Source: an uncultured bacterium
GTDB taxonomy: Bacteria; Margulisbacteria; WOR-1; JAKLHX01
Assembly: GCA_964597815.1 (NCBI GenBank)
Contig: CAZQZN010000001.1
Location: 1-64,000 of the forward strand
Length of the DNA: 64,000 bases
Reading direction: 5' to 3'
The position numbers are program-made. The stretch's first letter is position 1; every line of letters begins with the position of its first letter. Of this stretch, positions 30,001 to 33,000 are shown one piece after another.

Positions 30001-33000
30001 AGATAAAACAGAAACGGAAAAAAGTCCCACCTCCTCCAAATATTGATGTGTAAGATTTTGCTTATTAATACAGATTGACAGCCTTGGCGGATCACTTGTT
30101 ACTTGAAAAACAGTATTTGAAATCTGACCATTTAACCTTTTTTCTTTGTTAAAAGATGAAACAATATAAACACCATAGCTGATCTTTGAAAGAAATGAAT
30201 AATCCATTATAAAAATTATAGCACTTTGACGAAAATTCTTTATTCAAAGCGCTAAAAATAAAGGTTCTTCAAATCAAATATTTTTGACATAATGATAGAA
30301 GCAGTCTCGCTGTCAACCAAAATTTTTCGGCTCAATCCCTCGACATTTTCAAAAAATAAACTATTGAATAGATTTGAGATCATCTCTGAGTATTTTGAAT
30401 ATTTTTCAAACGCCTGTTGGTCGTAGTAATCTTTTAAGATTTTTACAATATAAAAAGGATGAACTTTTTGGGCAAAATTTGTTGAACATTTTGCATAAAT
30501 TAATGAAAATAATCCGGCTATGAAAGTATAGTCACTTTCAACAAAAAGTTTTTTTGTCTCTAATTTGAAAGAAGATAAGGTTTTGTCAACATTTTTTGCA
30601 ACAATTGGATTTTTAATAGGCCAGAATTGTTTTAAGAGGATAAAATTCTCATCAGTCCATCGCATCATTCTGCCAAGCAAAACGTTAGCAGCGTCGATTG
30701 GATAATCTTCAATAGATTTGTCTTTTAAATATTCTGTTTCCCTTGTTTTAAAACCACTCAATTTTATAATTTTCATTAAGTTTCTGTCAGTTACTAATCC
30801 ATTTCTTAAAAGCGTTATATCAGCCGAAAAATTATTGCCTGACTTAAATATTAAGTCCCTTTGTGTAAGCGCGTTAAAAATGGGAAACCCTAAATCGCTA
30901 ATAAGTGTTCTCTCATTTTTCAAGGCAACAACTGGATTTTCTCTCGAGAGCAGAGGTCTGTGCATTCTTAAAACAAAACCTTGGGGATTAAGTTGCGCTC
31001 TTAGATTAATTGGTTTAACCATTTATTCATCCCTCTTTGCCAAAGCATCTATTCTTGCAAGAATTATGTCAATTACTGGTTCAGGCAGGCGACCGGTAAA
31101 TTCAAATCTTGGGAAAAGAAGAAACAAATTTGTGTAAAGATCAATAATGTGCCTATAGATATTAAGCCATGATTTAACCTGCAAATTATTTTCCATTCGT
31201 TTAAACAAACTATCCATAATAGCGAGTTGTAATTTTGAACTGTCAAGTTTCACAATCGGCGTATTCCAAAAATAATTGTTAAACAAATCTGCACCTACCT
31301 CCAAAATTATGTCATAGTCTATTCTTGACAATTTGCCTTTTGTTGCCAAATCAAACTTTTTTATGTATTCATTGACCTCATCATCAACTTCTTTTGGCCT
31401 AATCTGCCTAAATTCATGTAAAAGCTTGAAATTTTTTTCATTCTTTTCCATACACCTTCCTGCAATTGCTTCAAAAATTTGCAATGGTTCTGTTTCGTTT
31501 TTCCTCAAAATCAATCCATTTGCTTTAAGCCCATCAATAAAATATGGATTTGTTGAAATGGCACATAATGCTTTTAAATCAACTCTCCCTTTTGCAACAG
31601 CTTTGTATTGTAGCAATAAATCTAGATTATCCTCGCCAATTGCTAATGAAATTTGAGAATATGGTTTGGAGGCAACTTTTTCTCTCAATCTATAAGTTGC
31701 TCTATTAACCAAATTAGGATAAAACATCCTTTGGTTTGTCCGCTGAATTCTATCCATCATCATGAAAAAACTACTCAATAGTTTTTCGTTATTTTTTCTT
31801 AAAAATTTCAATTAATGTGATATAATGATATTGCGCTGATTTGGAGACGATTGCTGCGCTCAATAAATGTGCTAAACCGTCAAAATTGAACATTGAACTC
31901 AGAGCATATTTAAAGCGCTGAGTTTTTTTGTTTTTTAGGAGCAAAAATGAAACAAATAAGAACTATTGATGAAATCAACGAAAAGATAAAAAGCGGAAAA
32001 GTTGTTGTGGTAACAGCAGAAGAACTTATTGATCTCGTTGAAAAAGACGGCATTGATAAAACGGCCAAAAAAGTGGATGTTGTGACAACAGGAACATTTG
32101 GACCAATGTGCTCATCTGGCCTTTTCTTTAATATTGGTCACACAAAACCACGAATAAAAATAAGTAAAGCGTGGTTAAACGGCGTTGAGGCATATGCAGG
32201 CCTTGCAGCAGTGGATCTTTTTATAGGCGCATCTCAGTTAAAAGAAGGCGATCCCGAAAATAAAGTCTATCCGGGAGAATTTAAATACGGAGGAGGTCAT
32301 GTAATACAAGATCTTGTCGCAGGAAAGGACCTATATTTGGAAGCCAATGCTTATGGGACTGACTGCTATCCTAGGAAAAAGTTATTAACTACAATAAACA
32401 TTAAAGATCTCAACGAAACAATTTTGTTTAATCCAAGAAACGCTTACCAAAACTACAATGTAGCAGTAAATACGAGCAAAAAAACAATTTATACCTATCT
32501 TGGCGTCTTACAGCCAAATCTTGGAAATGCAAATTACTCAAGCGCCGGACAACTCAGTCCCTTATTAAAAGATCCATTTTTCAAAACAATTGGAGTTGGA
32601 ACAAAAATTTTTCTTGGTGGCGGAATTGGCTTTATTGCCGGCAATGGAACTCAGCACAATCCAAATGTTCCAAGAACAAAAAACGGAATCCCAAAAAGAG
32701 GATCTGGCACAATATCAGTATTTGGAGATCTTAAACAGATGTCTCCTGAATGGCTTGTTGGAGTAAGCCTTCTTGGATATGGAGTGTCTTTAGCAGTTGG
32801 TATCGGTGTTCCAATTCCAATCTTGAGCCAAGAAATTTTAAGATGGGCTGCAACCAAAGATGAAGAGATATTTGCGCCAATAGTAGATTACAGCAAAGAT
32901 TATCCTCTTGCAAATCCAAAAATTTTAGGGGAAGTAAATTATAAAGAATTAAGAAGCGGGAAAATTAAGATTGGCGGAAAAGAAGTGCCAACAGGTTCTC

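Follow-up and report, generated by a model that had tools for sequence, protein, structure and literature searches.

The 64,000-nucleotide stretch of an uncultured Margulisbacteria genome analysed here (the window) carries, upstream of an operon for homocysteine synthesis, an element (copy 1, 31833-31881, + strand) that by its sequence and predicted fold is very likely a SAM-II riboswitch serving as an OFF switch for transcription of the HcyBio/NIL-ferredoxin genes. A second element of the same genome (copy 2, C3:18749-18860) has no gene of its own, and is probably a conserved derivative transcribed as a separate small RNA of ~110 nt. A SAM-OFF switch at copy 1 together with a gene-less small RNA at copy 2 is the joint explanation that we hold to be likely. 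Judged from sequence, both elements belong to SAM-II and constitute no new class.

Two SAM-II-type elements in one genome

Both elements lie where a genome-wide survey's note had placed them, with core matches at 31837-31876 of the window and at C3:18757-18797, and the core pattern has only these two matches in the 1.34-Mb genome (G000) and none in 10 shuffled genomes. The survey had counted 11 matches in 7 of 146 genomes of the phylum; our own pattern gave 12 in 8 of the 146, and the reversed-pattern control was again 0. Ten of the 12 are genuine and form the P1 stem (6 of copy-1 type and 4 of copy-2 type, across 6 genomes). The other two are chance-like, one in G070 lying inside an ORF without P1 (14.7 bits with a covariance model) and one in G117 likewise without P1 (10.2 bits). 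When the covariance model was run over the 146 phylum genomes, with 39 candidates scored per genome, 17 matches of at least 30 bits were obtained in 10 genomes, 7 of them new relative to the pattern search, including copy-2 loci in G096 and G097 and a tandem pair in G001.

The weak Rfam scores reported earlier were reproduced: copy 1 reaches 14.8 bits with SAM-II and 12.4 bits with SAM_alpha, and copy 2 reaches 12.7 and 18.7 bits, so that both copies of G000 (12.4-18.7 bits) are far under the gathering cut-offs of 44 bits for RF01726 (SAM-II) and 36 bits for RF00521 (SAM_alpha). At gathering level the whole window matches tRNA alone. P1 differs by copy, as had been claimed: copy 1 has GCGC/GCGC, copy 2 GCGG/CCGC. 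By eye, the SAM-contact bases of the SAM-V/SAM-II pocket, as given in the available text of PMC6061858, are all matched in both copies; P2 with its bulged U and the third-strand UUU is present in both and, being invariant, yields no covariation signal. A search for the aptamer at metK and metH of G000 found none.

Copy 1 as the leader of the HcyBio operon

The features of the leader and operon, in order along the window, are as follows.

31799..31826, + strand: sigma-70-like promoter with an extended -10, TG-n-TATAAT, at 31818-31826 (10/12 consensus positions, TG present)
31833..31859, + strand: P1 stem, GCGC (31833-36)/GCGC (31856-59), around third-strand UUU (31840-42) and AUUGC (31850-54) (sequence; P1 covariation over 90 aptamers)
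31846..31881, + strand: predicted pseudoknot P2, UUGC (31851-54) with GC-U-AA (31871-75) (sequence; by-eye mapping to the available text of PMC6061858)
31846..31881, + strand: P2a, GACG (31846-49)/CGUC (31878-81), 4 bp (sequence; weak family-wide P2a signal)
31865..31911, + strand: predicted antiterminator, 31865-31873 (aptamer 3' strand) pairing 9 bp with 31903-31911 in the terminator (minimum-energy fold)
31873, + strand: bulged U31873, predicted adenine-binding base of P2 (by-eye mapping to the same text)
31896..31936, + strand: predicted intrinsic terminator, hairpin 31896-31924 and U run (folding)
31937..31949, + strand: ribosome-binding site (31937-31941) and start codon (sequence)
31947..33158, + strand: HcyBio/DUF39 homocysteine biosynthesis enzyme, 403 aa (PF01837, E 1e-152, residues 19-376, the sole Pfam family)
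33160..33573, + strand: NIL and 4Fe-4S ferredoxin partner subunit (PF09383, PF00037)
33620..35401, + strand: GTP-type PEP carboxykinase, starting 46 bp 3' of the preceding gene (PF00821, PF17297)

The promoter is a consensus match alone, of a kind expected about once per shuffle, and its end lies 6 nt before P1. Promoters of TTGAC/TAnAAT type stand at the corresponding site in 4 of 5 relatives, among which the extended -10 recurs in G094 alone. The U-run terminator claimed for copy 1 was borne out by folding, which places a hairpin with an energy of -9.9 to -11.2 kcal/mol ahead of the U run; a simple terminator scan returned none. The predicted probability of this terminator is 0.48 in the free leader and 0.97 with the aptamer blocked, and in the free leaders of the five relatives it is 0.01, 0.05, 0.08, 0.84 (G098) and 0.97 (G092). 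Equilibrium folding separates the types imperfectly, as copy 1 of G092 and G098 and most metK/thrC switches keep the terminator when free, and the copy-1 region folds no more stably than its shuffles (z -1.2). The family mean score of P2a is 7.32 against 6.87 +/- 0.15 in permutations (2/2000 as high), a small effect among related sequences. The ribosome site lies ~55 nt 3' of the aptamer, behind the terminator and outside the aptamer. For 31300-33600 of the window no RNA runs were listed, a result that counts neither for nor against transcription.

This arrangement suggests a simple course of events. When SAM is lacking, the 3' strand of the aptamer would pair into the terminator and transcription would continue; when SAM is bound, the pseudoknot would close, the 3' strand would be sequestered, and the terminator would form. 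The aptamer tail had also been read as a half-site of what we take to be the CIRCE consensus, a reading that was dropped, the downstream complement being accounted for by the antiterminator.

The enzyme encoded behind the switch has no CBS domain detectable by Pfam in its 403 aa, full-length orthologues among those listed have 401-412 aa, and the methanogenesis marker 16 model gives it 115.6 bits, against a cut-off of 364. Its earlier designation as 'archaeal' went too far, since the DUF39 family is established in bacteria too, and according to the accessible part of the same report the DUF39 and NIL-ferredoxin pair is needed for homocysteine synthesis in both Desulfovibrio and Methanosarcina (PMC5764234). 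MJ0100 and MA1821 are described as having a SAM-sensing CBS domain and the Desulfovibrio enzyme as being without it, in the available portions of PMC4045070 and PMC12068725. With the switch, an enzyme without CBS would come under the kind of SAM feedback that the archaeal orthologues supposedly receive via their CBS domain.

Copy 1 stands upstream of an HcyBio orthologue in 6 of 6 genomes, as the survey had found. HcyBio itself is present in 41 of the 146 phylum genomes. Of its loci in the phylum 30 were scanned and 4 have the leader, every one in the window's family; two further cases come from G094 and G097. A copy-1 leader also stands ahead of HcyBio in L032, a record under the name Ca. Margulisiibacteriota. 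At 20 other HcyBio loci no riboswitch was found by Rfam, and at 13 of 21 HcyBio loci listed the gene follows directly, with no leader, a gene that we take to be cysK-like. Because the leader is confined to the window's family among the loci scanned, we infer that the switch was acquired at family level.

Margulisbacteria have been described, in the accessible text of PMC6349859, as a neighbour of Cyanobacteria. The earlier proposal of a SAM-II-class aptamer with a terminator platform, below Rfam cut-offs, on a DUF39 operon in a lineage adjoining Cyanobacteria is thus supported, and copy 1 in all likelihood adds to SAM-II a member whose lineage and gene context are both new. In the literature covered, outside of which most subscription journals lie, no description of such a switch on DUF39 was found, the one match being a paper on DseA. 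Through copy 1, SAM would regulate the anaerobic DUF39 route directly, and the arrangement suggests that in one family an RNA sensor has taken the place of protein allostery through CBS.

A wider SAM-II subtype, mostly on metK

An exact-pattern scan of GTDB gave at least 118 loci of an estimated 210, and 4 of the 118 listed duplicate loci of the window's family already counted. P1 of at least 4 pairs is formed by 106 of the 118 listed loci and not by the other 12. Gene context was not part of the search pattern, and genes of methionine and SAM metabolism (Met/SAM genes) follow 73 of the 106 P1-forming listed loci, as against 0 of the 12 without P1. These 73 contexts comprise 57 metK, 10 thrC-like PLP enzymes, 2 HcyBio, 2 metX-like, 1 metH-like and 1 metY-like genes; Pfam families were checked for at least one example of most gene-context classes, and the metX, metH and thrC labels are in part our presumption. 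The 57 metK contexts are not independent, because they come mostly from related Syntrophales. The remaining P1-forming listed loci precede a SAM-lyase homologue (1) or other genes (19), or have too little flank (13).

In a 90-sequence alignment, 64 cells of P1 show changes in both partners, where shuffles give 27; this covariation and the covariance-model matches are partly circular, because P1 pairing was the inclusion rule and the P2 core is invariant by pattern. Terminators stand behind 96 of 106 distinct aptamers, and 60 of 100 loci have, at a distance of 8-70 nt downstream, a complement of the aptamer tail of at least 7 bp, compared with 7 of 99 control windows. A tandem arrangement is seen in 20 of the 118 listed loci, and loose matches on opposite strands number 0. 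Rfam SAM_alpha was passed by 2 of 20 subtype loci tested (39.6 and 37 bits, cut-off 36), and because of these two the subtype is placed inside SAM-II rather than in a separate class.

From these patterns and contexts, the element of the window is not lineage-specific, and is part of a wide subtype that sits mostly on metK. As the other 18 of the 20 loci were missed, Rfam would overlook the majority of SAM-II switches in Syntrophales, Acidobacteria, Omnitrophota and further phyla that have been little studied, and an updated model is needed. A metXZ motif once presented as 'new' has in the same way been moved into SAM-II (accessible parts of PMC5473149 and PMC4239095), and SAM-II of terminator type and in tandem is already known (PMC1273637, PMC2258182 and PMC9481103, as far as available). 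A description of SAM-II in these taxa was not found in the literature covered, figure and supplement data of PMC5473149 and most subscription journals being outside that coverage.

A side observation concerns genomic islands. In five genomes examined, all strong aptamer matches are at loci without Met genes, and three such loci adjoin restriction-modification, capH/capP, E1-E2 or HEC-05-like genes. Of 4 matches in viral contigs, one (L217) is a genuine tandem pair located behind BrxL, two lie inside ORFs, and one (L220) has no P1-type match. At locus L079, a tandem OFF-type switch lies directly upstream of P0001, a SAM-lyase homologue. PF23780 (S-AdoMet_lyase) is matched by 33 of 53 members of the P0001 family, P0001 itself being unmatched; the only PDB match of the family profile is the phage SAM lyase Svi3-3 (E 0.016), and the P0001 model (pLDDT 84) ranks three SAM-lyase chains first at weak E-values of 0.02-0.03. 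A fold from 5 sequences was left aside (pLDDT 42). Because a 73% relative of P0001 (L170) has no aptamer in 536 nt upstream, the pairing of switch and SAM lyase counts as one case.

Copy 2, a conserved unit without a gene

Copy 2 is present in 6 genomes of 4 genera (G000, G092, G093, G094, G096 and G097), and each copy comprises three parts: the aptamer, a hairpin that has a bulge and a GYAA loop, and a terminator of 9-13 bp. In the 3' hairpins 5 pairs are changed on both sides, mostly through G096 alone. A complement of the tail of at least 7 bp, which would serve as antiterminator, is found in 0 of the 6. The terminator has a probability of 0.94-0.98 when free, which is not decisive alone because several true metK switches fold likewise. 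The best Rfam match to a known small RNA, P9, lies on the opposite strand with 24.3 bits (cut-off 43) and covers the terminator alone, and was rejected.

What the unit does is a matter of graded probability, and we give roughly even chances to copy 2 being an expressed RNA whose function needs SAM. The best-surviving rival, possible but of lesser weight, is that copy 2 is a stranded riboswitch whose gene was lost, and which is either decaying slowly or kept for a reason independent of SAM, such as a promoter sink or a protein-bound structured RNA. G096, which is without HcyBio, has a G in place of the first third-strand U, a predicted SAM-pocket base, and in G097 an inserted hairpin of 33 nt interrupts the loop that follows P1. 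The covariance model did not find copy 2 in two good genomes of the family, G095 (99% complete) and G098 (95% complete). A ready source of orphans also exists, the GCGG/CCGC type being common in mobile-looking islands before non-Met genes, and a target scan in 1184 crude translation-start regions, limited to perfect pairing, gave a longest complement of 10 nt, nothing above the 9-13 nt of shuffles. This rival is opposed by the pocket, which is unchanged in 5 of the 6 copies despite the differing base composition of their genomes, and by the promoter, extra hairpin and terminator, which are all retained, with compensatory changes. Moreover, the terminator is of no use to convergent neighbours, as only the aptamer strand carries a U run.

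The promoter class at copy 2

The GCAAG promoter claimed for copy 2 is confirmed and now extends to an invariant GCAAG and CGA in 6 of 6 loci; the spacing had been given as N16, and is N17 in 5 of the 6 and N16 in G096 alone. In G000, with crude gene calls, intergenic GCAAG-Nn-CGA has 20 sites at n=17, compared with 0-4 at each of 13 other spacings (n 10-23), and many GCAAG-N17-CGA sites lie 13-57 nt upstream of a same-strand start. Across 21 genomes the class has 248 matches against 102 for the reversed pattern. One site heads a flagellar-type export operon containing fliK, flhB-like, flgF/G/A/H/I, a FliA-like sigma, flgB/C and fliE/F/G/H/I. The best match of the operon sigma, encoded at C7:30583-31335, is FliA_WhiG at 144.6 bits, under the TIGR02479 cut-off of 189.6, and a second divergent sigma, encoded at C10:374-952, adjoins flhA. 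Flagellin has no match in G000, which does not prove its absence because the genome is 93% complete. Most other proteins downstream of these sites have no Pfam family. The pattern also resembles what we take to be the sigma-28 consensus. Fixed spacing and the link with the export operon make the survey's 'secretion sigma' label a fair one for the class, and support the assignment of the copy-2 promoter, from its motif, to a real class of alternative-sigma type tied to that operon. GCAAG might also be taken for no more than one arm of an operator palindrome that spans the -35 box; this was set aside as the principal interpretation, because the motif recurs as a class throughout the genome and G096 is missing the second arm.

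It is rather unlikely, in our estimate, that copy 2 is a housekeeping sigma-70 transcript with an incidental match to GCAAG-CGA. Such a reading draws on TTG(A/C)AA-17-TA(T/A)(C/T)AT, which overlaps the GCAAG motif in 5 of the 6 loci and whose TTG is special to the copy-2 locus, because only 2 of 34 GCAAG-N17-CGA matches of the genome have TTG at that register. G096, however, has lost the TTG and keeps both GCAAG and CGA, and the CGA, lying 11-13 nt upstream of P1 in 5 of 6 loci, would place the start just before P1, as is usual in SAM-II (PMC1273637, available text).

Neighbouring genes and the question of a leader

The genes 3' of copy 2 differ, as the survey had stated, being of four kinds over 6 genomes. 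In 4 of them the next gene is convergent (ABC-2 permease, deaminase twice, and YaeQ, three unrelated families), and in G093 and G094 it is tspO, which starts ~110 nt behind the aptamer and before which the U runs are weak; in G092 and G000, tspO lies 0.5-1.7 kb further downstream. The concern that copy 2 may be an ordinary tspO leader, raised in the survey on account of this distance, stands as to the distance and is weakened because tspO has its own extended -10 (TG-n-TATAAT) behind the copy-2 terminator in both genomes, and other genes intervene elsewhere. As the antiterminator is also absent from all six, we consider it improbable that copy 2 is a tspO leader, or that it acts in cis via read-through antisense to the opposite-strand neighbour. 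The part of the survey's claim that stands is a conserved gene-less unit behind a real promoter class of alternative-sigma type, tied to a flagellar-type export operon.

That the aptamers are SAM-II look-alikes binding either no ligand or a different one (SAH, a SAM derivative), to which low Rfam scores and the 19 of 106 P1-forming listed loci before non-Met/SAM genes would lend themselves, is very improbable, as the pocket bases are present, both uridines assigned to sulfonium recognition included, metK, metH-like, metY-like and HcyBio contexts fit SAM feedback, and close members pass SAM_alpha.

For copy 2 as a gene-less small RNA, a mechanism may be sketched with less assurance than for copy 1. 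The RNA, made up of the aptamer, the bulged hairpin with its GYAA loop and a constitutive terminator, would be read from the FliA-type promoter, and perhaps from the overlapping sigma-70 promoter too; SAM would fold and stabilise its 5' half, and a putative trans action would fall on some RNA or protein. More tentatively still, and with the chances against it, a SAM-II riboswitch may have been domesticated as a free-standing SAM-sensing small RNA, which lost its gene and antiterminator, gained a hairpin, joined the FliA-type regulon of a flagellin-less export machine, and would couple secretion to SAM status by acting in trans; its likely source would be a mobile pool of the subtype, in which defence-island genes and even a SAM-lyase homologue come under SAM-OFF switches that could sense phage-driven SAM depletion.

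Comparison with known systems

L-aspartate-semialdehyde sulfurtransferase, as represented by MA1821/MA1822, MJ0100 and the Desulfovibrio DUF39 protein, has the DUF39 and NIL-ferredoxin pair in common with the window operon (PMC5764234, accessible part). In being without a CBS domain the window enzyme resembles Dde_3007 and differs from MJ0100 and MA1821 (PMC4045070 and PMC12068725, as available); relative to the archaeal enzymes of the MA1821/MJ0100 type, the C-terminal CBS pair is absent, and SAM control would reside in the mRNA leader.

With SAM-II of terminator type, as at metA of A. tumefaciens and metZ of S. meliloti, the elements share P1 and the pseudoknot, conserved GAUUU/UUGC/GCUAAA, a promoter few bases before P1 and a terminator behind (available text of PMC1273637, PMC9373788 and PMC2258182). 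The differences are a short P1 (4-5 bp) and scores below Rfam cut-offs, a host in Margulisbacteria where the accessible parts of those papers name Proteobacteria and Bacteroidetes, and a gene context of DUF39/NIL-ferredoxin here and metK elsewhere instead of metA/X/Y/Z. SAM-V of metY type, the structure of which its authors call virtually identical to that of SAM-II, has the predicted pocket in common with both copies (PMC6061858, available text); it is translational, with the ribosome site in P2a, whereas the ribosome site of copy 1 lies behind the terminator, and RF01826 (SAM-V) was not among the matches of either copy at E up to 10. Of tandem SAM-II riboswitches 44 examples are known, some with two terminators, according to the accessible part of PMC9481103; in contrast to these, several subtype tandems head non-metabolic island genes, one of them a SAM-lyase homologue, and neither copy of G000 is tandem.

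The closest relatives of copy 2 in kind are Desulfovibrio DseA, Listeria SreA (SAM-I) and the S. meliloti RZ RNA (SAM-II terminated product), in each of which a SAM aptamer ending at a terminator accumulates as a small RNA, as described in the available text of 10.1101/803072 and PMC9373788. In that text these RNAs remain leaders of a downstream gene; copy 2 is without such a gene or an antiterminator, and has an added hairpin and a promoter of alternative-sigma type. If expressed, copy 2 would thus be, unlike SreA, DseA and RZ, a natural aptamer RNA without a gene of its own.

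Short frame upstream of HcyBio

In four genomes of the family, the gene of HcyBio, the DUF39 homocysteine enzyme, is preceded by a short frame beginning MxWIM, which has a ribosome site, is accompanied by a CCCC/GGGG-type hairpin and may possibly encode a methionine-sensing leader peptide. The same frame and hairpin stand before HcyBio in two riboswitch-less genomes of another family (L196, L197), while upstream of HcyBio in G000, the window's own genome, and in G094 the frame is absent.

L003, L004, L007 and L008: MxWIM frame of the family genomes, between terminator and HcyBio start

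Copy 2 and the GCAAG-N17-CGA promoters

The second SAM-II-type element of G000 (copy 2) lies outside the window, its aptamer being followed by an extra hairpin, a terminator and a convergent ABC-2 permease gene. In the copy 2 of G097 (L163:964-1051, on contig C47), a perfect 33-nt hairpin is inserted in the loop 3' of P1, the first aptamer stem, and looks like a small mobile palindrome.

G000:C3:18716-18860 (= L013:1460-1604 = L001:6717-6861): whole copy 2 unit
G000:C3:18716-18740: its promoter, GCAAG-N17-CGA
G000:C3:18754 onward: its predicted aptamer
Window 20777-20801, +: GCAAG-N17-CGA promoter, 37 nt upstream of a 325-aa protein
Window 37824-37848, -: GCAAG-N17-CGA promoter, 28 nt upstream of a 172-aa protein
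G000:C7:24016-36697 and C10:374-6603: operons for the flagellar basal body and flagellar-type export; a divergent sigma factor accompanies each

Both proteins behind the window promoters, which match no Pfam family, are candidate substrates of flagellar-type export. Flagellin found no match in the G000 assembly.

SAM-II elements at other loci

Further elements occur in the phylum, including the distant genome G001, and in islands elsewhere.

L161:770-998 (G001:C128): tandem, upstream of a phosphate-porin-like gene
L162:6452-6508 (G001:C20): third G001 element, upstream of a peroxiredoxin
L164:1211-1266 (G099:C30): predicted switchable, upstream of an unknown short gene
L079:1493-2447 (also L169, L224): tandem, OFF-type terminators, immediately 5' of the SAM-lyase-family homologue P0001
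L221:7870-8090, L222:3645-3870, L225:8640-8750 and L217:2995-3220: single or tandem, upstream of unknown genes
L223:9180-13130: two tandem pairs in one island, 4 kb apart

A patatin-like gene adjoins the G099 element and also lies, in reversed orientation, near copy 2 in G000. The unknown genes behind the L221, L222, L225 and L217 switches adjoin restriction-modification, capH/capP, E1-E2, HEC-05-like or BrxL genes, and these switches are candidate sensors of SAM depletion. Behind one L223 pair are genes that presumably resemble those of a vWA protein and an ADP-ribosylglycohydrolase. In Acidobacteria, tandem SAM-II heads a thrC-like PLP enzyme (L015, L018, L046, L075, L078 and others), which suggests that this enzyme works in homocysteine rather than threonine synthesis.
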